64,000 nt of DNA. It comes from Candidatus Staskawiczbacteria bacterium RIFOXYB1_FULL_38_37. Its GTDB lineage: Bacteria > Patescibacteriota > Minisyncoccia > Minisyncoccales > Staskawiczbacteraceae. A model generated the notes under the pieces. It ran no database searches, was not told the origin of the DNA, and saw nothing but the letters and a program-made list of their open reading frames with translations. The stretch is from the NCBI GenBank assembly GCA_001822075.1, contig MHPK01000004.1, positions 7,979 to 71,978 of the forward strand. Direction: 5' to 3'. This document shows, piece by piece, positions 3,019 to 44,360 of the stretch (position 1 is its first letter; the number at the start of each line of letters is the position of its first letter). The translations under genes were made by a program, and so were the position numbers.

Positions 3019-5103
3019 ATGCCGTACGAACCAAAAAAAGTTGAAAATAAAATTTATCAGTTCTGGGAAGAGTCTGGCTTTTTTAATCCCGATAAACTGC
3101 CCGCCCGTCATAAAAAGCCATACACTATTGTTATTCCCCCGCCGAATGTTACGGGCGAACTTCATATCGGACACGCTCTAAACGCAACAATACAGGATAT
3201 TTTGATAAGGCAGAAAAGAATGCAGGGGTTTAAAACTTTATGGCTGCCGGGAACAGACCATGCTGGAATTGCAACCCAAAATGTTGTTGAAAAAAAATTG
3301 AGGAAAGAGGGAAAAACAAGGTTTGACTTGGGCCGTGAAAAATTTATTGAAGAAGTATGGAAATGGAAAGAAGAATACGGAAATAAAATTTTAAACCAAT
3401 TTAAAAAACTTGGCTCTTCGTGTGACTGGTCAAGAACAAGGTTTACAATGGACCAGGGGTATTCTGACGCAATCAAAGAAGCTTTTTTGCATTATCATAA
3501 AAAAGGCTGGATTTATAAAGGAAAAAGAATTGTTAACTGGTGCAAAAGGTGCGCCACATCGCTTTCTGATTTAGAGCTTGAATATAAAGAAGAAAAAGGA
3601 AATTTGTGGTTTATAAAATACCCTGTTAAAGACCCGCCCGCCGGCGAGGCAGGAGGCGGATTTATCACGGTGGCAACAACAAGGCCAGAAACAATGCTGG
3701 GCGACACAGCTGTTGCTGTAAACCCAAAAGATAAAAGATATAAAAATTTAATTGGCAAAACAGCTGTCCTGCCTTTGGTAAACAGGGAAATTCCAATAAT
3801 ATCTGACATTTTAATTGATTCTAAATTCGGCACAGGGGCTGTAAAAGTAACGCCAGCCCACGACATAACCGACCAAGCAATCGGAGAAAAGCATAAATTA
3901 GAGGCAATACAAGTTATTGATGAAAAAGGAAGAATAATAAACAGTCCTGAAAAACCTGCCCGCAGCGGCTTCGCCACAGGCGATGCAGGCGGGTATAACG
4001 GATTGAAAATAGACGAAGCGAGAGAAAAAATTATTGAATATTTAAAATGCCAAAATCTTTTAGAAAAAACAGAAAATTACACCCGCCAAGTGCCAAAATG
4101 CTACAGGTGTTCAACAACAGTAGAGCTTATTCCCTCTATGCAATGGTTTTTAAAAATGTCAGAGCTGGCAAAATTAGCTGAAAAGCCTGTAAAAGCTGGA
4201 AAAATAAAATTTCACCCTAAAAATTTTGAAAAGCCATATTTTGATTGGCTAAAAAACATAAAAGATTGGTGCATTTCAAGGCAAATTTGGTGGGGCCATA
4301 AAATTCCAATAGAAGGAGAAACCGATGTTTTAGACACATGGTTTTCTGCGGCCTTGTGGCCTTTTGCAACTTTGGGCTGGCCCGAAAAAACAAAAGATTT
4401 AAAAAATTATTATCCCACTGCTGTTTTGAGCACAGCCAGAGATATTATAAATTTATGGGTTGCCAGAATGATTTTTTCCGGAATGGAATTTATGAAAGAA
4501 ATCCCCTTCAGCCATGTTTATGTGCACGCCACCGTTTTAACCCGCGACGGCCAAAGAATGTCAAAAAGCTTAGGGACAGGAATTGACCCTGTAAAATTAA
4601 TTGAGGAGTTCGGAGCTGACGCTGTAAGATTTGGGATTGCCTTCCAAATTATGGGAAACCAGGACATAAAATTTGTCACAGACAATATTTTAATGGGCAA
4701 AAAATTCTGCAATAAAATATGGAATGCTTCAAAATTTGTTGAATTAAAAAACGGAAAAGAAAAATATGACGGTAAAAAGCCTTATGCTAAAAATAAAGCT
4801 GATAAAGCAATTTTAAAATCATTGGAAAAAACAGAAAAATCAGTTAGCAAGTGCTTGGAAAATTTTGAATTCGGAAAATCAGCCCATATTTTGTATGATT
4901 TTTTCTGGCATGATTTTTGCGACAAATACATAGAAGAATCAAAAAAACAGGAATCTGAAAACACAAACAAAATTTTAATGTACGTTTTGTTGGGCTCTAT
5001 AAAGCTTTTGCACCCGTTTATGCCCTTTATAACAGAAAAAATTTACCAGCAATTGCCCCTGAAAAATAAAAAAGAGTGTATAATGATAGAAGAATGGCTT
5101 TAA
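3019..5103 (+). CDS. valS: Valine--tRNA ligase (short form lacking C-terminal coiled coil)
   Basis: PPPNVTGELHIGHALN (HIGH), KMSKSLGTG (KMSKS), VATTRPETMLGDTAVAVNPKDKRY. Confidence 0.9.
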   Translation: MPYEPKKVENKIYQFWEESGFFNPDKLPARHKKPYTIVIPPPNVTGELHIGHALNATIQDILIRQKRMQGFKTLWLPGTDHAGIATQNVVEKKLRKEGKTRFDLGREKFIEEVWKWKEEYGNKILNQFKKLGSSCDWSRTRFTMDQGYSDAIKEAFLHYHKKGWIYKGKRIVNWCKRCATSLSDLELEYKEEKGNLWFIKYPVKDPPAGEAGGGFITVATTRPETMLGDTAVAVNPKDKRYKNLIGKTAVLPLVNREIPIISDILIDSKFGTGAVKVTPAHDITDQAIGEKHKLEAIQVIDEKGRIINSPEKPARSGFATGDAGGYNGLKIDEAREKIIEYLKCQNLLEKTENYTRQVPKCYRCSTTVELIPSMQWFLKMSELAKLAEKPVKAGKIKFHPKNFEKPYFDWLKNIKDWCISRQIWWGHKIPIEGETDVLDTWFSAALWPFATLGWPEKTKDLKNYYPTAVLSTARDIINLWVARMIFSGMEFMKEIPFSHVYVHATVLTRDGQRMSKSLGTGIDPVKLIEEFGADAVRFGIAFQIMGNQDIKFVTDNILMGKKFCNKIWNASKFVELKNGKEKYDGKKPYAKNKADKAILKSLEKTEKSVSKCLENFEFGKSAHILYDFFWHDFCDKYIEESKKQESENTNKILMYVLLGSIKLLHPFMPFITEKIYQQLPLKNKKECIMIEEWL

Positions 5104-6480: not shown

Positions 6481-7097
6481 AAATATTTTTTTGCAAATAA
6501 AAATTTACGACTAAGTGAGGATGGGAAATTTTTATAATAAATTCTATTCAATAAATTTATTGAATCGGCCATCGCGTATTCAAGAATATAACAACGTGTA
6601 GCAGTTTTTAAATATCCTTTTACTTTAAATGGCTCATTCATTCTCTTTATCCAGATAAGAAAATTTTTGCTTGCGGAACAAATTCTTATTCTAAGTTGAG
6701 GGTTTTTACTTTCTGGATGTTTGAACGCTCTAATATTGCCATCTCCATCGATACATCCTCTTAAAAAATCGAGAAAATAATCCTTTGGTATTTTTAATAC
6801 TCCTATTGTTTTTGACTTATGGGGCGTTAAACCAATGTCTAATAAAAATTTATAAAAAGCGACATCGCCAAATTGAATACGAAAATATTTCTTTTCTTTT
6901 TCCCCGCCTCTCGCTTTCTTTGAAATTTTATTTTGTAAGTTTAGATAATTTTTAAAAATTTCAACTAAATCCAGATCTTTAGAGGTAAATTCCATATGAT
7001 GCCCGTCAATAGAAAGATTACCATCGGTTGCCATTAATCCGATTACATAAGCAAACTTTGAAGACCACAAAATTTTTACTTTATTAAGGGGTCGCAT
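6471..7097 (-). CDS. LAGLIDADG homing endonuclease, double-motif, free-standing
   Basis: Two motifs, YVIGLMATDGNL and FLRGCIDGDGNI. The last 10 nt including the stop overlap the 5' end of tRNA-Leu(UAG). Confidence 0.8.
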   Translation of the reverse strand: MRPLNKVKILWSSKFAYVIGLMATDGNLSIDGHHMEFTSKDLDLVEIFKNYLNLQNKISKKARGGEKEKKYFRIQFGDVAFYKFLLDIGLTPHKSKTIGVLKIPKDYFLDFLRGCIDGDGNIRAFKHPESKNPQLRIRICSASKNFLIWIKRMNEPFKVKGYLKTATRCYILEYAMADSINLLNRIYYKNFPSSLSRKFLFAKKYLRT

Positions 7098-21817: not shown

Positions 21818-22492
21818 ATGGCAAGATTTAAAGATAAAGAAAAAGCTTTAGCTCTTAGAAAACAAGAAATGAGCTACAGCCAAATTAAAAATATTTTAGG
21901 AGTAAGCAAAAGCACACTAAGCGGGTGGCTTAAAGATTATCCTTTATCCAAAGAGAGAATAGATGCTCTGCGAGGTAAAAATGAAAAACGGATCGAAAGA
22001 TATCGTGAGACGAGAAGACGAACAAAAGAAAAAAGATTAAATGAATTTTATCTTGAAGAAAAAGGCAAAGTTTTTCCTTTAACAAATAGAGATTTTTTTA
22101 TTGCCGGACTCTTTTTATATTGGGGGGAAGGAGCAAAAACATTATCTAAAGAAGTTTCTGTATCCAACACAGACCCGTCAATGATTAATTTTTTTATAGA
22201 TTGGGCTATTAAATATCTAAAAGTCTCCAAAGAAAAATTATGCATTACATTACATTTATATAATGATATGGACATTGATAAGGAAATAGAATTTTGGTCT
22301 AAAAAAATAGACATACCAAAAAATCAATTTAGCAAACCATATATAAAGCAGACTTCTTTAAAATCAATAAATTACAAAAGAGGATTCGGACATGGAACAT
22401 GCAATGCAAGAATAAATAATGCGCGTCTTTCCGAGAAAGTTTTGATGGCAATAAAATCAATATCAGATAAATATTCAAATGCGGGCCTGTAG
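21818..22492 (+). CDS. HTH + single-motif LAGLIDADG-like endonuclease (putative)
   Basis: N-terminal HTH SYSQIKNILGVSKSTLSGWL, then FFIAGLFLYWGEGAK. The stop codon lies 10 nt inside tRNA-Ile. Confidence 0.5.
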   Translation: MARFKDKEKALALRKQEMSYSQIKNILGVSKSTLSGWLKDYPLSKERIDALRGKNEKRIERYRETRRRTKEKRLNEFYLEEKGKVFPLTNRDFFIAGLFLYWGEGAKTLSKEVSVSNTDPSMINFFIDWAIKYLKVSKEKLCITLHLYNDMDIDKEIEFWSKKIDIPKNQFSKPYIKQTSLKSINYKRGFGHGTCNARINNARLSEKVLMAIKSISDKYSNAGL

Positions 22493-22646: not shown

Positions 22647-22647
22647 C

Positions 22648-22701
22648 ATGGATATAAAAATAATCTACGAAGATAATGATGTTTTGGTTGCTTTTAATTG
22701 A
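22648..22701 (+). pseudogene. Duplicated 5' fragment of the rluD-like gene (17 codons then stop)
   Basis: 22648..22690 matches 23191..23233 at 40 of 43 positions. It translates MDIKIIYEDNDVLVAFN*, against MNVKIIYEDNDVLVVDKP in the full gene. Confidence 0.8.
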
Positions 22702-22747: not shown

Positions 22748-22981
22748 ATGTTTAATGAATTTATTGAAAAAAAATTAAAATCGGCGCGATATAAAATTCT
22801 CAAAGACGGGAGTTATTTTGGCAAAATTCCAGAGGTGCAGGGAGTATGGGCCAACGCTAAAAACTTGGAAGATTGTCGGCAAGAATTGAGAGAAGTTTTA
22901 GAAGACTGGTTTCTTCTAAAACTTCAAGCGAGAGAAAAAATACCTGATTTCGAAATTAGAATTGGATGCCGTCATGCTTAA
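22748..22981 (+). CDS. hicB: HicB-like antitoxin (UPF0150 type)
   Basis: YKILKDGSYFGKIPEVQGVWANAKNLEDCRQELREVLEDW pattern. Overlaps the next ORF by ATGCTTAA. Confidence 0.65.
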   Translation: MFNEFIEKKLKSARYKILKDGSYFGKIPEVQGVWANAKNLEDCRQELREVLEDWFLLKLQAREKIPDFEIRIGCRHA

Positions 22982-23186
22982 AAATATTTCTTGGCGAAAA
23001 TTCATTCAGAAATTTAAACGGCTCGGATTTGATGGCCCCTATTCAGGCGGCCGTCATTTGTTTATGATTAAAAAAGAATTAAAAGTTCATATTCCCAATC
23101 CTCATCGTAGCGACATTTCAAAACACCTTGTTTCAGAAATTTTAAAACAAGCAGGCATTTCAATTAGCGATTGGGAAAACGCTTGA
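22974..23186 (+). CDS. hicA: HicA-like mRNA interferase toxin
   Basis: FKRLGFDGPYSGGRHLFM...HIPNPHRSDISKHLVSEILKQAGI. The in-frame ATG at 22974 was chosen over 22962. Confidence 0.65.
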   Translation: MLKNISWRKFIQKFKRLGFDGPYSGGRHLFMIKKELKVHIPNPHRSDISKHLVSEILKQAGISISDWENA

Positions 23187-23190
23187 TTAA

Positions 23191-23937
23191 ATGAATGTAA
23201 AAATAATCTACGAAGACAATGATGTTTTGGTTGTTGATAAACCTGCTGGAATTGTTGTTTTTCCAGAAGGAGATATAAGTGGAGAAAAAACCTTAATTGA
23301 TTATCTGGTAGAAAAAAATCCTGAGTTAAAATTAGCCGGTGAAACACCAAGATACGGAATTGCGCATAGATTAGACAAAGACACTTCCGGAATTTTGTTA
23401 GTGGCAAAAAACAGCGAGGCCTTGATTTTTTTTCAAAAACAGTTTTCCGCCGTCGCTAAAGCTTTGGCGGACAAGAAAAATAGCCAAACACTTGAAAAAA
23501 GCATAGAAAAAAGGTATATTGCATTAGTTGAGGGCGATATAAAAGAAGATAATAGGACAATCCACACTCTAATTGGACGCTCGCCAAAAGACCCAAGAAA
23601 ACAAAAAGCATATTCTTTAAACGAAGCAAAAACCGGCAGAAGAGAAGCAGTCTCAGAATATAAAGTTTTACAGCGCTTTAAAGACTATACTCTGCTTGAG
23701 GTTCAAATAAAAACAGGAAGGCGACACCAGATAAGGTGCCATTTATCTTATTTGCATCACCCGATTGCAGGCGACAAACTATATGGATTTAAAAACTCAA
23801 AAACTCCTGAAGGCCTGACAAGGCAATTTCTGCACGCATCATACCTAAAAATCCAATTACCCAATGGAAAAACCGAAGAATTTAAATCGGATTTGCCAGA
23901 GGGATTACAAGTAATACTTAAAAACCTAAAAACATAA
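23191..23937 (+). CDS. rluD: RluA/RluD-family pseudouridine synthase
   Basis: HRLDKDTSGILLVAKN and TGRRHQIRCHL motifs. Confidence 0.85.
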   Translation: MNVKIIYEDNDVLVVDKPAGIVVFPEGDISGEKTLIDYLVEKNPELKLAGETPRYGIAHRLDKDTSGILLVAKNSEALIFFQKQFSAVAKALADKKNSQTLEKSIEKRYIALVEGDIKEDNRTIHTLIGRSPKDPRKQKAYSLNEAKTGRREAVSEYKVLQRFKDYTLLEVQIKTGRRHQIRCHLSYLHHPIAGDKLYGFKNSKTPEGLTRQFLHASYLKIQLPNGKTEEFKSDLPEGLQVILKNLKT

Positions 23938-35702: not shown

Positions 35703-36263
35703 ATGTCAGAAAATTTTAAAGATTTATATCATTTTATAGACTTGGCTAGGGCCAATAGAAAATACCCGGATAATACAGCAAACAATTTAAAGTCTGCCTT
35801 AAAAATTTTTGAGAAAGAGCTTAATGCAGACGAGTCAAAATCAATAAGTATGATAGAAAACAGCATAGAAGAGATATTCAGAGATGTTGCTATTGCAAAT
35901 AAAAACAAAAGCATCTTATCTTTAAACACCTATAAAGCCCGCCTGCTAAAAGTTATAAATGACTACAAAAAATACGGCGTAGATCCTACAAAAATACAAA
36001 AGTGGACTCCAAAATTAAGGCCTGCCCGCCATAATGCGCCAGCTTTAGGCGGGAAATCCACAGGGGTGTTAATTAAAAAAGATAAAACAGATAAAGAAAA
36101 TATAAACATATCTAATTTTATCGACTCTCCTGTGGAAAGCTCCCACAAAATAGAAATTGTTTTAGAATCTGGGGCAAAAGCTGCCCTATCAATCCCCCGC
36201 GAATTAAATAAAAGCGATGCCGAAACCATAAAAGCTGTGATAAACTCTTTGACTAAGCTGTAA
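35703..36263 (+). CDS. Hypothetical protein carrying an in-frame GC-rich element
   Basis: 186-aa ORF with no recognisable domain. Contains PARHNAPALGG, encoded by the 33-nt element. Confidence 0.5.
   Translation: MSENFKDLYHFIDLARANRKYPDNTANNLKSALKIFEKELNADESKSISMIENSIEEIFRDVAIANKNKSILSLNTYKARLLKVINDYKKYGVDPTKIQKWTPKLRPARHNAPALGGKSTGVLIKKDKTDKENINISNFIDSPVESSHKIEIVLESGAKAALSIPRELNKSDAETIKAVINSLTKL
36021..36053 (+). repeat. 33-nt GC-rich palindromic element (copy A, in-frame)
   Basis: cctgcccgccataatgcgccagctttaggcggg, with terminal cccgcc/ggcggg pairing. Confidence 0.8.
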
Positions 36264-38587: not shown

Positions 38588-39892
38588 TTATTCAGAAAAA
38601 CTTTCCAATTTTTGGAATACTTTTTCATTATATAACACGCCTTTAGTATACTCTTTTAATTGCTCAATGTCAAACTCATTTTTTGTTGATTTTGATACTT
38701 CTTCTTCAACTTCTGCATCTGAAACTTCAATATTTTCTCTTTTGCCAAGCTCTCTTAAAACTAAAAAACCTTTAAGCCGTTTTTCGGCTTCTTTTTGAAA
38801 AGTTTGGGTTAATGCTTCTTCTGTTTGTTTTACAGCCGACAAATACTGCTCAAAAGTAATTTTCATATTCTGGGTAACTTTATTTTTTAAATCTTCCATT
38901 AGTCTTTGTTTTTCGTAATCTACCATTGATTCTGGCAACTCAACTTTTACTTTTCCTGAAATTTTTTCTAAAATTTCTCCTCTTTTTCTTTGTTTTTCCT
39001 GTTCTGTTTTTTCTATTATAATGCCTTCTTTCATGCTTTGTTTTAAAGTAACTAATGTGTCAAAATTACCCATGCCTTTTGCAAACTCATCATTAATTTC
39101 AGGCAATTCCATTTTTTGAACTGATTTTAATTTCACTTTAAAAATTTTACCCGCCTGATTGCCCGAAGGGCTTTCGGCGGGCGACTTCTTTTCCCCGCCC
39201 AAAGCTTCGGCATTATGGCGGGCAGGCTGCCAATCCATTTCAAATATTTTTTCTTCACCAGCTTTCATTCCAACAATTGCATCTTCAAAGCCTCTTATAA
39301 ATCCGCCCTCTCCTAAAACAAAGTGGTCGCGCACAGATTTACCGGCATTTATATCTCTATTTTCATAATTTATTTCAACAAAGTCGCCTTTTTCAGCCGG
39401 CTCATTTTTTAAAGTCATTTTTGCCCTGCTTTTTTGCAGATATTTTAAGGAATCTTGCACTTCTTCTTCTGTAACAGAGATTTCTTTTCCCGCCGACTGG
39501 CGGATAATTTTTTTTGCGATTTCTTTGTAATTTTCTGGTAATTCAACGTCCGGTAGAACAGTAATCACGGCTGTAAAAATAAACGGATTTCCTTTTGCAA
39601 TTTTTACAATCTTAACTTCCGGCTGGCCTATTGGCTCTAAATTATTATCTTTTACATAATCAGAATAAACATGCCTTACAGCATGGTCGCCAGCTTCCAT
39701 TAACAAACTTTCCGGCTTTATTTTTTCTTCAACCAATTTATTCGGCGCCTGCCCGGGCCTGAACCCGTCAACTTTTACATGGCTTTTCATATGCGACAAA
39801 GCATGCTCAAAATGGCGCTCAAATTCTTCCGAAGTTAATTCGAATGTTATTTCTATCTGTGACTTTTCTAATTTTTTAGATTTTATATCCAT
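38588..39892 (-). CDS. tig: Trigger factor, with ~26-aa GC-rich element insertion in the PPIase region
   Basis: MDIKSKKLEKSQIEITFELTSEEF..., FKBP-type core GFEDAIVGMKAGEEK. Inserted segment PARHNAEALGGEKKSPAESPSGNQAG. Confidence 0.85.
   Translation of the reverse strand: MDIKSKKLEKSQIEITFELTSEEFERHFEHALSHMKSHVKVDGFRPGQAPNKLVEEKIKPESLLMEAGDHAVRHVYSDYVKDNNLEPIGQPEVKIVKIAKGNPFIFTAVITVLPDVELPENYKEIAKKIIRQSAGKEISVTEEEVQDSLKYLQKSRAKMTLKNEPAEKGDFVEINYENRDINAGKSVRDHFVLGEGGFIRGFEDAIVGMKAGEEKIFEMDWQPARHNAEALGGEKKSPAESPSGNQAGKIFKVKLKSVQKMELPEINDEFAKGMGNFDTLVTLKQSMKEGIIIEKTEQEKQRKRGEILEKISGKVKVELPESMVDYEKQRLMEDLKNKVTQNMKITFEQYLSAVKQTEEALTQTFQKEAEKRLKGFLVLRELGKRENIEVSDAEVEEEVSKSTKNEFDIEQLKEYTKGVLYNEKVFQKLESFSE
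39194..39226 (-). repeat. 33-nt GC-rich palindromic element (copy B, in-frame in tig)
   Basis: The minus strand reads cctgcccgccataatgccgaagctttgggcggg, which is 29 of 33 identical to copy A in the same reading frame. Confidence 0.8.
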
Positions 39893-39963
39893 AAAGCTAA
39901 CGCGTTTAATATTAAAAAAGACGCGATTTTAAATTTGCGCCTTCCCAGAAAAGATAAAAACCT

Positions 39964-40248
39964 TTATGTCAGATCTACTCCTAATTTTTGTTTTATAACA
40001 TCTTTAACTCTGTTGATATCGGCTCGCATCATCGCGAACTCATCTTCTATATCTGTCATTCTTTTTAAAAAATTATCAAGTGTTGTAGTAAGTTTATCAA
40101 ATTTTTCACTAAATTTTAAATCCAAAGCTTTGATTTTTTCCTCTAACGAGCTCATTTTTTCATCAACGGCAGTTAAGATAACTGTCGTCTGCTCGCTCAA
40201 AAGCTCTTGAATGTCTTTTTTTGTAATTTGTTGCGTTTCTTCTGCCAT
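39964..40248 (-). CDS. Small coiled-coil protein (paralog-like to 40736..40987)
   Basis: 94 aa, heptad-rich, C-terminus IKQKLGVDLT resembling IAEKLGIKLEY of the neighbour. Confidence 0.5.
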   Translation of the reverse strand: MAEETQQITKKDIQELLSEQTTVILTAVDEKMSSLEEKIKALDLKFSEKFDKLTTTLDNFLKRMTDIEDEFAMMRADINRVKDVIKQKLGVDLT

Positions 40249-40265
40249 ATTTTTATTGCTTATAT

Positions 40266-40440
40266 TTTTATCTTATCAGCTTAAAATCCATTGTCAATTA
40301 TACGCATTAAATCACCTATAAATAACTCATCGACAACTGTCGGTGAGTTATTCGAGCTTTAATCGCTCAGACGCATCTGAGCGATTGGATTTAGAGCCGA
40401 AAAAGGTACCTGACCCCTTTATCTTTGACCCCTTTATCTT
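40266..40440 (-). repeat. ~170-bp intergenic module R1 copy 1 (two hairpins + promoter)
   Basis: Near-identical to 41171..41340 (about ten substitutions). Hairpins aataactcatcgaca/tgtcggtgagttatt and aatcgctcaga/tctgagcgatt. On the minus strand: TTGACA-16-TAAGAT. Confidence 0.8.
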
Positions 40441-40478
40441 ACACTATTAAAATTTTTTTCATAGATTTTATTTTTTAA

Positions 40479-40574
40479 TTTTAATAATAATTACCTAATT
40501 ATACCACAACTTTTAACGGCTCACCCTCAAACAGGTTGAGCCGTTGGATTAAAAAGAATGGTGGCTGACCCCAT
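40479..40574 (-). repeat. Intergenic module R3 copy 1 (hairpin + extended -10)
   Basis: tttaataataattacctaattataccacaa...acggctca..gttgagccgttggatt, matching 41807..41910. The minus strand reads TGGTATAAT. Confidence 0.75.
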
Positions 40575-40664
40575 TTACACAATGTAATGCTCAAATTCTT
40601 CCGAAGTCAGTTCAAAAGTTAATTCTATCTGTGACTTTTCTATTTTCTTTTGTGTAGCTTTCAT
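40575..40664 (-). pseudogene. Duplicated 5' fragment of tig (29 codons then stop)
   Basis: Translates MKATQKKIEKSQIELTFELTSEEFEHYIV*, against tig MDIKSKKLEKSQIEITFELTSEEFERHF. DNA 40589..40733 aligns to 39817..39958 including the upstream region. Confidence 0.8.
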
Positions 40665-40735
40665 AATATATATTTATTTTAATATTAAAAAAAGACGCGA
40701 TTTAAAATTTGCGCCTTCCCAGAAAAGACAAAAAA

Positions 40736-40987
40736 TTAATATTCTAATTTTATCCCAAGCTTTTCAGCGATCTGTAAAAGCCACTTATCGTGCCGATTAA
40801 CTTTTTCAGATAGCATGGTCATTTCCTGAAAATAAGTGTCAGCTTTTGTTGCATAAGCGTCAACCGATGCCTGAAGATTGCTGAAATCTTTTCTATATTC
40901 ATCTCTAAAGTTTTCAAAATCAAGCTTTGTGATAAAAACTTCTTCCTGCGCCTTTATTAATTTTTGTATATCTTCGTTATCCAACAT
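40736..40987 (-). CDS. Small coiled-coil protein
   Basis: 83 aa. Its ATG lies 2 nt after the stop of the upstream zinc-ribbon ORF. Confidence 0.5.
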   Translation of the reverse strand: MLDNEDIQKLIKAQEEVFITKLDFENFRDEYRKDFSNLQASVDAYATKADTYFQEMTMLSEKVNRHDKWLLQIAEKLGIKLEY

Positions 40988-40989
40988 AT

Positions 40990-41166
40990 TTAATTTGTTT
41001 CAACTTTATTTTTTTCTGGTTTTATAAATTTATGCTTCTTCAAAAAATTTATAATTGGCAAACCACATTTGTCGCACAATTCGGCTTTTGACCAATATCC
41101 AAATCCAGCCGTTATCGGCTTCTCTTTAATTTCTTTTTTACACAGATCGCACTTTACAATGTTCAT
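40990..41166 (-). CDS. 58-aa zinc-ribbon protein (CxxC...CxxC), not in ORF track
   Basis: Hand translation: MNIVKCDLCKKEIKEKPITAGFGYWSKAELCDKCGLPIINFLKKHKFIKPEKNKVETN*. Translationally coupled to 40736..40987. Confidence 0.5.
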   Translation of the reverse strand: MNIVKCDLCKKEIKEKPITAGFGYWSKAELCDKCGLPIINFLKKHKFIKPEKNKVETN

Positions 41167-41170
41167 ATGC

Positions 41171-41340
41171 TTTTATCTTACCAGCTTAAAACCCATTGTC
41201 AATTATACGCATTAAATCATCTATAAATAACTCATCGACAACTGTCGGTGAGTTATTCGAGCTTTAATCGCTCAGACGCGTCTGAACGATTGGATTTAGA
41301 GCTGAAAAAGGTACCCGCCCCTTTTATCTTCTTTTATCTT
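41171..41340 (-). repeat. Intergenic module R1 copy 2
   Basis: See 40266..40440. Confidence 0.8.
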
Positions 41341-41347
41341 TTATGCA

Positions 41348-41797
41348 TCAACTAAAAAATAAAGCTTTGAAAATAAGAAAAAATAAAACAACGACAACAG
41401 CTATTGTGGTATAAATCCATATTCTTTTTTGGGCTGGTTGATTTTCGTGACGATCTGAGAACGAACCGATTAGATATCCTATAAAAAAATAAATTAAAAG
41501 ATTTATAATAACTACACCAATAAAACTAGACCAATTATCACAACCCATAAAACTTGATGGATGACAATATTCTTCTGCAAAAGAACTTCCAAAAACAGCA
41601 AAAAAATATGGGGAAAGAAGAACGCCAATAATACTTATTAATAATGAGATTAATACAAGTATAGCTGGTGCCGTGGGTATTAAATCTATTTTGAGAGATT
41701 GCAACCCAAGACTTACGGGTATTATATAAAAAGCAACGATAGCTATAACTAAATAAATAGACGCCGTAATTAATCCGAACTTTAAGGATTTTTTCAT
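41348..41797 (-). CDS. Hypothetical four-TM membrane protein
   Basis: 149-aa hydrophobic ORF lying between R3 copy 2 and R1 copy 2. Confidence 0.5.
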   Translation of the reverse strand: MKKSLKFGLITASIYLVIAIVAFYIIPVSLGLQSLKIDLIPTAPAILVLISLLISIIGVLLSPYFFAVFGSSFAEEYCHPSSFMGCDNWSSFIGVVIINLLIYFFIGYLIGSFSDRHENQPAQKRIWIYTTIAVVVVLFFLIFKALFFS

Positions 41798-41806
41798 AAA
41801 ATTACA

Positions 41807-41910
41807 TTTTTAATAATAATTACCTAATTATACCACAATTTTAACGGCTCAACCTGTTTTAAGTTGAGCCGTTGGATTTAGAGCTGAAAAAGGCTCCTGC
41901 CCCCATTTAA
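41807..41910 (-). repeat. Intergenic module R3 copy 2
   Basis: See 40479..40574. Confidence 0.75.
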
Positions 41911-41938
41911 CATTTAACACATTTAACACAAAGGAGGG

Positions 41939-42265
41939 TTATTTTTCGTATCTTTTGTCTATTTTTTCCATTTTTTTCTCCAAAGCTTTTTCAATATCAA
42001 CATTCATAGCATTTGCAAGCAACAAACTTGTAATAATAACATCGGCAAATTCTTCTGCTAAATTGCCTTCTACAATATTATCTAATTTATCTTTTCTTTG
42101 CATAGAATTATATGCTAAAACTTCATCACATAGCTCACCAAACTCTTCTGCCAGCTTCACCGTTCTGGCAAGTATACGTTTTTCTTCGTCAGGATAATTT
42201 CCATATCTGTTTCTCAACCTTTCATCTTCCTTTTTTATAAAACTTATTAAATCTTTAAACTCCAT
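41939..42265 (-). CDS. MazG-like nucleotide pyrophosphohydrolase
   Basis: LAEEFGELCDEVL and EEFADVIITSLLLANAMNVDIEKAL (EExxE/D pairs). Confidence 0.7.
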   Translation of the reverse strand: MEFKDLISFIKKEDERLRNRYGNYPDEEKRILARTVKLAEEFGELCDEVLAYNSMQRKDKLDNIVEGNLAEEFADVIITSLLLANAMNVDIEKALEKKMEKIDKRYEK

Positions 42266-42341
42266 AAATTTATTTTTTATATTAAAAAATTAATAAAACT
42301 TTACGCCCCGTCCCGATTTTATCGAGGACGGGGCGATTAAA

Positions 42342-44360
42342 TTAAACTAGAAATGGAATAATTAGTAATGCAACTATATTGAGAACTTTAATCATTGGGT
42401 TTATTGCTGGTCCCGCTGTGTCTTTATATGGGTCGCCCACTGTGTCGCCGGTAACGGCTGCTTGATGGGCAAAACTTCCTTTGCCTCCGTAAGCTCCGCC
42501 CTCAATGTATTTTTTGGCATTGTCCCAGGCGGCTCCGCCGGTTGTCATTGAAATTCCAACAAACAATCCTGTAACTATGCTTCCAATTAATAATCCGCCC
42601 AAAGCTTCAACTCCCAAAAATACTCCAACTAAAATTGGCGCTAAAATAGGAATTAAAGCCGGCAACAACATTTCTTTAATGGCTGACTTTGTAACAATAT
42701 CAACGCATTTTCCGTATTCTGGTTTTCCTGTTCCTTCCATTAAGCCCGGAATTTGTTTAAACTGCCTTCTTACTTCTTCTACAACTTTTCCTGCTGTTTT
42801 TCCGACAGCTCCCATTAAAAACGATGCAAACAAATAGGGGAGCAGTCCGCCAATTAAAAGCCCTGCAATAACTTTTGAATTATCTAAAGAAAAACTTACA
42901 GCTCCGTTTATGCTTGCTTCCTGCGAATAAGCTGCAAACAAAACTAAGGCCGCTAGGCCAGCCGAAGCAATTGCATATCCTTTTGTTACAGCTTTTGTTG
43001 TGTTTCCAACTGCGTCCAATGCATCTGTAATTTTTCTTACTTCTTCTGGCATTCCTGACATTTCTGCAATTCCGCCGGCGTTGTCTGTTATGGGCCCGTA
43101 TGCGTCAACTCCCACAACAATTCCAGAAACCGAAAGCATTGCCATTACAGCTAACGCCACTCCGTAAATTCCGGCAAACCAAAAACTTATAATAGTTCCA
43201 AAAGCAATTAATAAAACAGGCATGGCTGTTGACTGCATTCCCAGCCCCAAGCCCCTAATTATATTTGTTGCGTGCCCTGTTTCTGACGCTTTAGCAATTG
43301 ATTTTACCGGGCCGTAACTTTTTGAAGTGTAATATTCTGTGATAACAAACATTCCTCCGGCAATTGCCAAACCAACCAAGCATGCAAAGTACAAATTATT
43401 TGTTGCAATTGCCTGGCCTGCCATTAATTTTAAAATTACAGGATAAAATCCGATTGCTGACAAAATTACAGAAGCCGCAATTCCTTTGTACATAGCCCCC
43501 ATAATTGACTGCGTTTCTTGCCCGCCTAAATTTTTTCTAAAAATTTTGGTGGGTGAACCCAATTTTACAAAATAACTGCCCACAATTGAGGTTAAAATTG
43601 AAACAGCTCCCAAAACTAAAGGAAGTAAAACAAATTGGGGCGAGGCTGGAAATAACAAACCTCCCAAAATCATTGTGGCTACTGTTGTTACGGCGTAAGT
43701 TTCAAAAATGTCAGCTGCCATTCCTGCGCAATCTCCAACGTTGTCGCCAACCTGGTCAGCTATTACAGCCGGGTTTCTTGGGTCGTCTTCGGGAATTCCC
43801 TTTTCAACTTTTCCAACCAAGTCAGCTCCCACGTCAGCTGCTTTTGTGTAAATGCCACCGCCAACTCTTGCAAAAACCGAAATTAACGAAGCCCCAAATC
43901 CCAAAGCCACCAATCCTTCCATTCCGGTTAAAAGGTAATAAACCGAAACAGCCAAAAGCCCCAAGCTCACAACCATTAAGCCTGTAATTAATCCTCCTTT
44001 AAAAGAAATGTCTAAAGCTTTTACCATTCCTTTTTTTGCTGACTCGGCAACTCTTGTGTTTGCCTGTGTTGAAACAATCATTCCAATAAATCCCGAAACT
44101 CCCGACAATACGGCTCCCAATAAAAATCCTATTGCAATTTTCCAGCCCAAAAAGAAAAGTAAAATAAATAAAACAACTCCAACTATGGAAATTGTTTTAT
44201 ACTGCCTTTTCAAATACGACATAGCTCCTTCCTGAACAGCCAAAGTAATTTCAACTGCCTTGCCTCCCGCAACCGGGGCTTTTCTAATTTGCATTACCAA
44301 AAACCAAACATAGGCAATTGCAAACAGCGAAATAATTATCGGATAATATATTAACTGCAT
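42342..44360 (-). CDS. hppA: Membrane-bound ion-translocating pyrophosphatase
   Basis: [54 protein letters not shown]. Confidence 0.95.

Follow-up and report, generated by a model that had tools for sequence, protein, structure and literature searches.

A cut second tig start beside two small coiled-coil genes in Candidatus Staskawiczbacteria looks like a scar of ordinary recombination

Background

Integrative elements such as e14 and phage 21, found in the icd gene of E. coli, rebuild the end of their target gene. Homology-facilitated illegitimate recombination is known from naturally transformable Acinetobacter, Streptococcus pneumoniae and Pseudomonas stutzeri and from conjugation in E. 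coli (PMC3240628; references 41, 42 and 47 of PMC5361080). It has been proposed to underlie the closely analogous 'sequential displacement' in the T6SS effector-immunity arrays of V. cholerae (PMC5361080), and 'C-terminal displacement' has been described for Rhs proteins (Jackson et al. 2009, as cited in PMC5361080). Natural competence is reported for one CPR lineage, the Saccharibacteria (PMC10187176).

The current analysis concerns a stretch of 64,000 nucleotides (the window) of contig MHPK01000004.1 from Candidatus Staskawiczbacteria bacterium RIFOXYB1_FULL_38_37. The original prediction for this DNA held that a cassette had entered the first codons of tig, and that the promoter and 5' end of the gene had been duplicated by a recurrent mechanism which targets gene starts. 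The scar at tig looks instead like the outcome of ordinary recombination of a known kind, with no new mechanism directed at gene starts.

Results

The direct repeat at tig

The intact tig gene (38588-39892, minus strand) encodes a protein of 434 residues to which the Trigger_N, FKBP_C and Trigger_C domains of Pfam have all been assigned and which is full length in comparison with 120 homologues. A direct repeat on the same strand has been identified by repeat search and gapped alignment, with a proximal copy at 39808-39960 and a distal copy at 40580-40734. The copies are about 150 nt long and 82% identical overall, and each comprises a terminator-like hairpin, a ribosome-binding spacer and tig codons 1-28. 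The repeat search pairs 39817-39877 with 40589-40649 (61 nt, 89%) and 39914-39960 with 40688-40734 (47 nt, 96%), and about 35 nt in the middle of the repeat, corresponding to the ribosome-binding spacer and codons 1-8, cannot be aligned. The distal hairpin (40687-40720) is also recovered by folding, and a 27-nt hairpin pattern occurs exactly twice in the window and in none of 100 shuffles, so that the repeat is confirmed at the position where it had been predicted. Identical blocks of 18-24 nt are shared by the copies, as is to be expected anyway in a 150-nt repeat of such identity.

The distal copy contains a 29-residue ORF, tig' (40575-40664, minus strand), whose translation, MKATQKKIEKSQIELTFELTSEEFEHYIV*, consists of tig codons 1-28, a junction codon and a stop, in agreement with the predicted truncation of the gene. 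Its N-terminus matches the real tig N-termini of relatives, and the segment EEFEHYI, as in P0003, continues up to the break. Judged from these matches, tig' is a genuine tig start that has been cut, a chance ORF being excluded. The full Trigger_N/PPIase/Trigger_C architecture is not present in its 29 residues; all three domains are found in the proximal gene only.

The break is situated at about 40580/40579 (CATTACATTG/TGTAAATGGGG), where codon 28 of tig is joined to GTAAATG repeats at the left edge of the module R3'. The two sides of this illegitimate junction are clearly non-homologous. In the relative L004 the GTAAATG repeats follow the pyrophosphatase gene, and the sequence directly 3' of the pyrophosphatase stop codon in that genome matches the left 33 nt of R3' at 94% identity. 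The position of the break at the start of R3' and the match to L004 together suggest that the junction unites two sequences which are normally distant.

The proximal hairpin (39914-39946, minus strand) is followed by a U-run and lies 3' of a gene for a 94-residue protein. It pairs GGGAAGGCGC with GCGUCUUUUU across a 12-nt loop (fold -11.4 kcal/mol), and was missed by the terminator scan because its loop exceeds 8 nt. The same stem is situated 3' of the coiled-coil gene in five relatives in all, among them L016, L177, L071 and L092, and a G-U to A-U change leaves its pairing intact. On the tig strand, sigma-70-like sites are located solely in the modules R1 and R1', inside the 94-residue gene and inside the MazG gene, and the promoter scan gave none between the hairpin and the tig ATG. 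The duplicated promoter of the original prediction is not borne out: what is conserved is the stem with its U-run, and by its features the duplicated non-coding piece is the terminator-like hairpin of the upstream gene and not a recognisable promoter. An Rfam scan of 39700-42400 gave nothing credible, the sole match being IsrM (16 bits against a threshold of 376 bits).

Genes and repeat modules of the islet

The interval between tig and the H+-pyrophosphatase gene (42342-44360, minus strand) is, on comparison of genomes, a hypervariable islet in Candidatus Staskawiczbacteria. The pyrophosphatase gene forms its conserved left border and a candidate homology anchor, and the neighbours of the islet are tig, clpP and the genes of RNase Y, the pyrophosphatase and NusA. 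On the minus strand the order is R3, the 149-residue gene, R1, the 58-residue gene, cc83, hairpin, tig codons 1-28, R3', R1', cc94, hairpin and the full tig. Downstream of tig' there is therefore a block of about 770 bp (the cc94 unit of 772 bp, with R3', R1', the 94-residue gene and the hairpin), followed by the intact gene. The small gene and the two repeat modules that had been placed between the repeat copies are confirmed.

The gene cc94 (39964-40248, minus strand) encodes a 94-residue coiled-coil protein with 84 homologues in Patescibacteria, and the AlphaFold2 model predicts one long helix over residues 10-89 (pLDDT 87). The gene cc83 (40736-40987, minus strand) encodes an 83-residue coiled-coil protein. 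BLASTP between the two proteins is not significant, and their homology is visible by profile-profile comparison only: the family alignments match over their full length in hhalign (probability 96.7%, E-value 3.7e-10, 78 columns). On this comparison cc94 and cc83 are anciently diverged versions of one small coiled-coil gene. A Cys-rich protein of 58 residues (40990-41166, minus strand), taken from the ORF list, is conserved in both L004 (76% aa) and L092 (56% aa), where the promoter is the same too, and its gene, adjoining cc83 on the same strand, is probably in one operon with it.

Two further accessory genes are present. One encodes a membrane protein of 149 residues (41348-41797, minus strand) and is absent from L004 and L016; the other encodes a MazG-like pyrophosphohydrolase of 108 residues (41939-42265, minus strand; Pfam MazG, E-value 3.4e-8) and is absent from L004. 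The 94-, 83-, 58- and 149-residue proteins could not be assigned by searches of Pfam, PHROGs and NCBIfam, in which weak coiled-coil noise alone was returned, and no integrase or transposase domain was seen in the unassigned ORFs of the islet. No inverted repeats bounding the insert were found by the repeat search.

Module R1' (40249-40425, minus strand) is made up of short AAGATAAAGGGGTC repeats, a GGTACC-T-run-GCTCTAAATCCAA motif, two hairpins and a promoter (TTGACA-16-TAAGAT with TG, 40297-40270, from the promoter scan), and has a fold z-score of -4.5. It is 93% identical over 165 nt to R1 (41166-41330, minus strand), whose promoter is at 41202-41175. Module R3' (40479-40579, minus strand) has a GTAAATGGGGTCAGCCACC motif, a hairpin at 40515-40545 and an extended -10 box, TGGTATAAT. 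It is about 80% identical to R3 (41798-41938, minus strand) and 89% identical to a copy in L016; R3 itself matches an L016 copy at 91% identity. The hairpin of R3 was examined as a possible attC-like site, since GCTCAAC...GTTGAGC fits RYYYAAC/GTTRRRY, and was rejected on account of its short perfect stem and the lack of an integrase.

A remnant of the start of the 149-residue gene (ATGAAAAAAATTTTAATAGTGTAA, seven codons; 40439-40462, minus strand) has been identified in the proximal unit by direct reading and by the repeat search, which aligns 40447-40485 with 41782-41820 (74%). The repeat of the original prediction is therefore real, and the duplicated unit is larger and patchier than had been supposed: R1 with R1', R3 with R3' (about 80%) and this remnant also belong to it.

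The locus in related genomes

Genes of the cc94 type are found directly upstream of tig in L016/L017, L071 and L177-L181. In L092 a 58-residue gene and a gene of the cc83 type (93% aa) are situated directly upstream of tig, with the hairpin between. Both putative parental configurations hence exist separately, in related species rather than in the same species. The claim that a cassette had entered the first codons of tig is not supported, as one or the other of these genes is the normal upstream neighbour; since cc94 and cc83 are normal neighbours of tig and homologues, nothing foreign need have targeted tig. No second tig start is found in any of about 55 related tig loci. A single-unit haplotype of the same species was not found, and in tig the relatives with a single unit are about 19-31% different at the nt level. 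Variants of cc94 with 97-99% identity come from L176, which has the same arrangement, or from L177-L181, a lineage whose backbone is about 81% identical, and close variants of cc83 occur in L092 or upstream of uvrA (L183).

In comparison with L177, the promoter, cc94 and the hairpin (40277-39907) are about 96% identical, whereas the tig/clpP/rny backbone is about 81% identical. This contrast points to a recent exchange of the cc94 unit between lineages. The proximal spacer and codons 1-28 (39906-39808) are only about 78% identical to L177, with both flanks at about 96%, and the 96% tract resumes in tig codons 30-60. By comparison, tig' with its hairpin shows 91.7% identity, over 156 nt, to the hairpin and tig 5' end of L177, and the ribosome-binding spacer is identical.

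tig/clpP and the pyrophosphatase gene are conserved on the two sides of the islet in all relatives. Strain L003, from another groundwater metagenome (tig 98% aa), has an islet 100% identical to that of the window, and its SNP clusters are confined to the flanks, with 30 SNPs within 42714-43314 and 17 within 38591-38639. The clusters start inside the flanking core genes, which appear to behave as exchange anchors. The attempt to name the incoming block failed, the pyrophosphatase gene having an even nt identity of about 93% to both L016 and L004, with no breakpoint, and tig being mosaic against every relative compared.

The scar at rluD

A second scar of the same shape, also noted in the original prediction, is confirmed at rluD on the plus strand. 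The remnant rluD' (MDIKIIYEDNDVLVAFN*, 22648-22700) directly abuts a tRNA-Val gene ending at 22647, and is followed by the hicB (UPF0150-like) and hicA toxin-antitoxin pair (22748-23186; Pfam E-values 4.8e-26 and 7.3e-11) and the full rluD (23191-23937). Among 80 related loci, the distance from the tRNA-Val gene to the start of rluD is 0-10 nt in most. The distant genome L107 encodes the same rluD'/hicBA unit with the same GGAAT junction (89% nt, as against 76% for rluD), and each rluD' remnant is no closer to the rluD of its own genome than to that of the other. Insertions of hicBA are also seen between tig and clpP in L004, with no flanking duplication.

Self-comparison of 1.09 Mb of related loci returned only the rluD case once more in one genome and one duplication of a leader, in which no coding 5' end is copied.

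Discussion

Origin of the tandem arrangement

On balance, the probable origin of the scar is the fusion of two haplotypes of one variable locus by homology-facilitated illegitimate recombination, which would have left a scar and not a working device. A version of the cc94 type and a version of the cc83 type, each with the same terminator hairpin, would have been joined head to tail in this species. DNA from a related haplotype, presumably acquired by uptake, would have been integrated with homology at one end only: the illegitimate junction would be the one at which the GTAAATG repeats on the left edge of R3' meet tig codon 28, and the other exchange point would lie in conserved sequence, in tig/clpP or in the pyrophosphatase gene, by homologous exchange. 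Such an event would leave tig intact and both coiled-coil genes in place, while the old or passenger tig start would become a dead ORF of 29 codons. Through the two 150-nt repeats, the 772-bp cc94 unit could at a later time be deleted or looped out. No less simple is a history in which the block upstream, from MazG through the 83-residue gene to tig', came in with its ragged end within tig. The proximal patch of about 100 nt, with about 78% identity to L177, needs an extra exchange or fast divergence.

The two coiled-coil genes are distant while the flanks of their units are 93-96% identical, so that divergence after duplication cannot explain the pair. A duplication within the genome could have been followed by allele replacement, which is possible but rather doubtful. 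An unequal exchange between sister chromosomes, from tig codon 28 to the left edge of R3, would have copied about 1.36 kb (R3, the 149-residue gene, R1, the 58-residue gene, cc83, hairpin and tig codons 1-28); recombination through the shared promoter and hairpin would then have overwritten one small gene with the allele of a relative, and the spare copy of the 149-residue gene would have been deleted. The units are indeed mutually closest in R1 (93%, closer than to any relative) and in the hairpin (54/57), the hairpins and codons 9-25 (46/51) being as close as to any relative. For these codons most relatives score 36-39/51, and the distal copy is about equally close to L177. This closeness also fits later gene conversion. 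The start remnant of the 149-residue gene in the proximal unit agrees with such a duplication as well, and the left boundary of the L177-like 96% tract lies in the promoter common to R1 and cc94, as expected if the allele was replaced by homologous exchange. This history nevertheless calls for no fewer than three additional events (allele replacement, deletion of the 149-residue copy and replacement of R3). It has also to account for R3', which is of a different subtype from R3, namely that following the L004 pyrophosphatase gene and present in L016, and for the strong differences between the copies in the spacer (5/13) and codons 1-8 (16/24). Collapse or chimerisation of two strains during assembly can practically be discounted. 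Contig L176 ends inside R3', and assemblers can therefore break at these repeats; however, more than 24 independent contigs from several projects, up to 422 kb in length, span the whole tandem arrangement, the same gene order is seen in 24/24 contigs read from the 83-99 collection blocks carrying these proteins, and the copies are diverged enough for unambiguous assembly.

The dedicated mechanism of the original prediction, site-specific or guided by 5' ends, would set small cassettes within the first codons of housekeeping genes, and each of them would carry or copy a replacement 5' end in the manner of integrase-mobilised elements or cis-mobilisable remnants. It would account for two scars of the same shape in 64 kb and for the common GGAAT junction in a genome that differs so much in rluD, and the identical 18-24 nt blocks of the tig repeats could be taken as its core sites. 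It is quite unlikely, given that no recombinase is encoded in or beside either insert, that repeats of about 150 nt with 82-96% identity are unlike short identical target duplications, that cc94 is the normal neighbour of tig, and that a second tig start is lacking in the relatives. Moreover, 20 of the 80 rluD loci, with extra DNA after the tRNA-Val gene, were examined and a remnant was found in L107 only, and a single event, carried between genomes by homologous recombination through tRNA-Val and rluD, would suit the common rluD junction. That such scars recur is better explained if conserved gene starts act as homology anchors and only those products survive in which the essential gene is intact. 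A function of the distal ORF and its leader, as a uORF or small peptide under selection, is very improbable. Its ATG is kept and its spacer is the same as that of the functional tig in L177 and L016, but it is absent from all related species, ends at the illegitimate junction with an immediate stop codon, and encodes merely the first strand or helix of a ribosome-binding domain of 150 residues; its identity in L003 is uninformative because the whole islet is identical there.

A broader and rather unlikely extension is that CPR bacteria stack alternative cassettes before essential genes independently of recombinases, as a homology-driven analogue of integrons. The gene starts and the promoter and terminator modules R1 and R3 may then serve as portable homology arms, and units such as rluD'-hicBA or tig'-cc94 may loop out and re-enter other genomes.

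With haplotype fusion as the favoured reading, the locus offers a well-resolved example of how, in ultra-small CPR genomes, accessory genes around essential ones may be reshuffled without any mobile-element machinery being recognisable. It suggests that alleles of a small coiled-coil gene move between lineages, as seen in the identity of about 96% on a backbone of about 81%, and that a single illegitimate join is enough to stack two alleles and to leave behind a gene start that is dead. In annotation, it serves as a warning that short ORFs resembling gene starts beside small cassettes may be scars, and that an apparent promoter may, as here, be a terminator. If such scars are common across the CPR, they could be used as markers of recombination and gene flow in uncultivated lineages.

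Comparison with known systems

Target-site duplications of transposons are short and identical and are accompanied by terminal inverted repeats and a transposase, whereas the tig repeat of about 150 nt has none of these features. The islet resembles integrons in its small accessory genes of one orientation, separated by repeated modules that contain hairpins. The attC sites of integrons are, however, imperfect sites of 57-141 nt at the 3' ends of cassettes and are acted upon by the integrase IntI; the hairpins of R3 and R1 form perfect stems that measure only about 31 nt and have, by inspection, promoters downstream, no integrase is encoded in the islet, and each islet cassette has its own promoter.

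The elements e14 and phage 21 share with the tig scar a direct repeat composed of a gene end and its diverged copy, the displaced copy being a pseudogene, and many of the differences between copies keep the protein sequence. They possess an integrase and a defined identical core and usually occupy 3' ends, while the tig insert is 772 bp long and has no recombinase.

In the T6SS and Rhs displacements, as may have happened at tig, the resident allele of a variable module is displaced by an incoming one and kept adjacent as an orphan with a truncated gene piece, and arrays grow by repetition with the conserved neighbouring sequence as the anchor. Their anchor is the 5' part of a toxin gene and their orphans are 3' ends; at tig the anchor would be a housekeeping gene and the orphan its 5' end with the ribosome-binding spacer. 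The variable module at tig, the small coiled-coil gene, gives no evidence of a toxin or immunity function, unlike the modules of these arrays.

Homology-facilitated illegitimate recombination was defined by experiments with selectable markers, while the event at tig is deduced from its natural product. The likeness lies in one end that would be anchored in conserved sequence and another joined to non-homologous sequence, and in the addition of foreign or allelic genes beside a conserved gene with no dedicated recombinase needed. The tig scar differs from the described cases in that its donor is likely to have been another, related haplotype of this locus, and it is for this reason that the scar has the appearance of a partial tandem duplication.

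Gene organisation of the interval between PPase and tig

All the genes in the interval between the H+-pyrophosphatase (PPase) and trigger factor (tig) genes, referred to here as the tig islet, are encoded on the minus strand. In the order of transcription, PPase (44360-42342) is followed by a MazG-like protein (42265-41939), the intergenic module R3 (41938-41798), a 149-aa membrane protein (41797-41348), module R1 (41330-41166), a 58-aa Cys-rich protein (41166-40990) and cc83, an 83-aa coiled-coil protein (40987-40736), with a hairpin next to it. Then come tig' (40664-40575), a truncated copy of the start of tig, module R3' (40579-40479), a 7-codon remnant of the start of the 149-aa gene (40462-40439), module R1' (40425-40249), cc94, a 94-aa coiled-coil protein (40248-39964) that is also followed by a hairpin, and finally tig (39892-38588), clpP and RNase Y. 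The cc94 protein is 100% identical to an NCBI protein from Candidatus Staskawiczbacteria bacterium RIFOXYC1_FULL_37, and the closest homologues of tig bear the Candidatus Staskawiczbacteria genus name (CPR/Patescibacteria).

Each accessory gene of the islet is preceded by a module of one intergenic family (41798-41938, 40479-40579, 41166-41330 and 40249-40425), whose parts are short tandem GTAAAT/GATAAA repeats, a GGGGTCAG..CC motif, a T-run, (GCTCTA)AATCCAA, a perfect hairpin and a promoter. Members are also present in the related metagenomic loci L016 (3160-3290 and 3976-4110), L177 (1780-1890) and L095 (about 490-570), and are 89-91% identical across species in which tig differs by about 20%. 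The modules have no Rfam match and may act as terminator-promoter units carried along with cassettes.

The direct repeat

The duplication at the start of tig is real. A repeat search returned matches of 61 nt (89% identity) and 47 nt (96%), which on gapped alignment form part of a single direct repeat about 150 nt long (39808-39960 against 40580-40734), the poorly aligning middle of which corresponds to the ribosome-binding spacer and codons 1-8. The two copies agree at 54/57 positions in the hairpin, 5/13 in the spacer, 16/24 in codons 1-8, 46/51 in codons 9-25 and 7/10 in codons 26-28. A 27-nt pattern taken from the repeat occurs twice in the window and in none of 100 shuffles. The distal ORF translates as MKATQKKIEKSQIELTFELTSEEFEHYIV followed by a stop; the peptide is that of genuine tig as far as the break, and its EEFEHYI is also present in the homologous protein P0003.

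The repeat is not a mis-assembly: the gene order is the same in 24 contigs, drawn from 83-99 collection blocks, and in L003, a further strain from a different groundwater metagenome. L003 has the same arrangement and is 100% identical to the window over 42713-39254. Clusters of SNPs lie on either side, 30 within 42714-43314 (PPase) and 17 within 38591-38639 (the 3' end of tig). Identity across the islet and tig (about 4 kb) with flanking SNPs could reflect a recent block exchange between strains; alternatively, the SNPs at the end of tig could mark a chimeric contig end.

The duplicated non-coding piece is a hairpin

The non-coding part of the repeat, originally predicted to be the tig promoter, forms a stem of 10 base pairs with a U-run after it. 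The same stem is found 3' of the coiled-coil gene in L016, L177, L071 and L092, and a variant in L071 (GACGC for GGCGC of the window) replaces a G-U pair by A-U. Since stem and U-run recur after the coiled-coil gene with the pairing kept in L071, the piece probably serves as the upstream gene's terminator. On the minus strand a promoter scan places sites only in R1' (40297-40270), in R1 (41202-41175), inside cc94 and inside MazG. It finds none between the hairpin and the ATG of tig, and the reading as a tig promoter is therefore unsupported; the sole promoter-like feature of that interval, by direct reading, is a -10-like TAATAT (39914-39909). Transcription of tig may occur by read-through from the R1' promoter.

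Two homologous units and their mosaic identity

BLASTP finds no match between cc83 and cc94. Comparison of their family alignments (34 and 30 relatives respectively) by hhalign gives a full-length match with a probability of 96.7%, an E-value of 3.7e-10 and 24% identity, so that the homology of the two units extends from end to end. They have diverged very unevenly, with about 24% amino acid identity in the small gene against 93-96% nucleotide identity in the flanks. The predicted model of cc94 is a single long helix (residues 10-89, pLDDT 87). Both families are widespread in Patescibacteria, beside unrelated housekeeping genes that vary by genome: members lie downstream of a ClpB-like AAA+ gene, directly upstream of uvrA, by the gene for the CCA-adding enzyme or near rpsO. 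At least one further paralogue of cc83 is encoded in the same genome outside the window (P0462, locus tag A2402_01540; 78 aa, 81% identity over 71% of cc83).

The most informative comparison for the tig locus is L177. The promoter, cc94 and hairpin (40277-39907) are about 96% identical to it, the proximal spacer with tig codons 1-28 (39906-39808) about 78%, codons 30-60 96%, and tig/clpP/rny overall about 81%. The distal remnant (40735-40580) matches the hairpin and tig 5' end of L177 at 91.7% over 156 nt, the spacer being identical. The first 60-90 nt of functional tig are 65-77% identical to L016 and L004, rising to 87-97% just beyond, whereas L016 and L004 share 90-92% over the same stretch. 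These sequence comparisons indicate that the locus is a fine-scale mosaic, in which cc94 and its terminator appear to have been recently exchanged between lineages.

The remnant ends at the junction CATTACATTG|TGTAAATGGGGTCAGCCACC; the sequence on the right belongs to R3', of which it forms the left edge. This module shares 89% identity with an L016 copy and differs in subtype from the R3 of the window itself (about 80% identity). In L004, sequence 94% identical to the first 33 nt of R3' directly follows the stop codon of PPase. The join is therefore an illegitimate one, linking tig codon 28 to what is normally found just downstream of PPase.

Variability in related loci

Of 80 metagenomic tig loci fetched, about 55 carry the tig N-terminus and none of these has a second one. 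The PPase-tig interval is hypervariable among relatives. In L004 its sole genes are the 58-aa one and an unrelated gene of 96 aa, and in L016 it holds a restriction-modification-like pair, an NYN-domain gene and hemerythrin-like fragments. A cc94-type gene lies immediately upstream of tig in L016/L017, L071 and L177-L181, and the 58-aa gene with a cc83-type gene (93% aa) in L092; the species of the window has stacked both alternatives.

The tig-clpP spacer, only 18 nt in the window, also varies among relatives (L004 3473-3946, L016 6300-6762, L029 6281-6750, L061 6250-6543), where it contains a different hicB/hicA pair, additional membrane-protein genes or, in L061, a cc94-type gene. An in-frame insert at 39146-39235 within tig itself (...QPARHNAEALGGEKKSPAESPSGNQAGK...), rich in G+C and partly palindromic, is missing from relatives. 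About 33 nt of this insert (GCCTGCCCGCCATAATGC..AGCTTTGGGCGGG) are found inverted at 36015-36056 inside the neighbouring 186-aa ORF (35703-36263), where PARHNA.ALGG is likewise encoded. Other G+C-rich palindromic in-frame inserts occur in tig of L177. This is reminiscent of the in-frame palindromic elements known in Rickettsia.

The rluD locus and the frequency of such scars

The usual arrangement, present in most of 80 related genomes, is tRNA-Ile, tRNA-Val and then rluD, with its ATG 0-10 nt past tRNA-Val. In the window the remnant rluD' (22648-22700) holds this position, followed by hicB-hicA and the full rluD. L107 has the same structure and junction, rluD codons 20-21 GGAAT and then ATGATAWTCTTA. 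The two are 87-90% identical in hicBA and its leader, 76% in rluD and 71-77% in adjoining genes, and neither remnant is closer to the rluD of its own genome than to that of the other. One event, with spread via the conserved flanks, would be sufficient for this scar. Extra DNA past tRNA-Val occurs in 20/80 loci, with a remnant only in L107 among those 20. The ORF at 21818-22492, with a 607-aa gene on one side and tRNA-Ile, which it overlaps by 10 nt, on the other, encodes a 224-aa helix-turn-helix protein; the protein weakly resembles IS3/IS630 transposases in their N-terminal DNA-binding parts and is missing from the corresponding position in L107.

Self-comparison of 173 sequences (1.09 Mb), a set biased to two loci and hence a weak estimate of frequency, revealed gene-start duplications at only four places (the window twice, L107 and L029). 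The L029 case is a leader duplication and not one of a coding 5' end. There 163 nt of the tig leader (4833-4995 and 6779-6940, 90% identity) are repeated further downstream, past tig-hicBA, and the repeat immediately precedes the start of a membrane-protein gene. The leader has a tandem CTGCAACCATCTGATA.AAA.C.ATAGAAGGTTG motif and ends exactly at the GTG start codon.

Origin of the tig repeat

A single event would suffice for the structure if two haplotypes had existed, one (D) with PPase, MazG, R3, the 149-aa gene, R1, the 58-aa gene, cc83, hairpin and tig, and the other (R) with PPase, R3', R1', cc94, hairpin and tig. The cc94 block could have entered a D genome with its homology anchor in tig or downstream, its free left end being joined at tig codon 28 (direction A). 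Conversely, the MazG-to-cc83 block could have entered an R genome with its anchor in PPase, its ragged right end inside tig being joined at the GTAAATG repeats (direction B). The two directions are equally simple, and no breakpoint that could tell them apart was found in PPase. The main rival is a tandem duplication of about 1.36 kb within the genome, after which an allele would have been replaced at the shared promoter and hairpin. It is favoured by the 93% identity of R1 and R1' and by the remnant of the 149-aa gene start, but it requires more events and leaves the R3' subtype unexplained.

Domain scans of the islet ORFs revealed no recombinase or transposase, and the islet has neither bounding inverted repeats nor a short identical target duplication, which argues against a dedicated insertion mechanism. 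The original prediction of a cassette inserted within the first codons with duplication of the promoter is thus partly right in shape and wrong as to the promoter, and the suggested targeting of gene starts is unproven. The tig repeat belongs to a known kind of recombination scar; what is unusual is its location at the 5' end of a CPR housekeeping gene. It would gain interest if a CPR-wide scan revealed many such scars at fixed positions. Both directions of the single exchange fit homology-facilitated illegitimate recombination as defined in PMC3240628, and they mirror the 'sequential displacement' model of T6SS and Rhs loci (PMC5361080).
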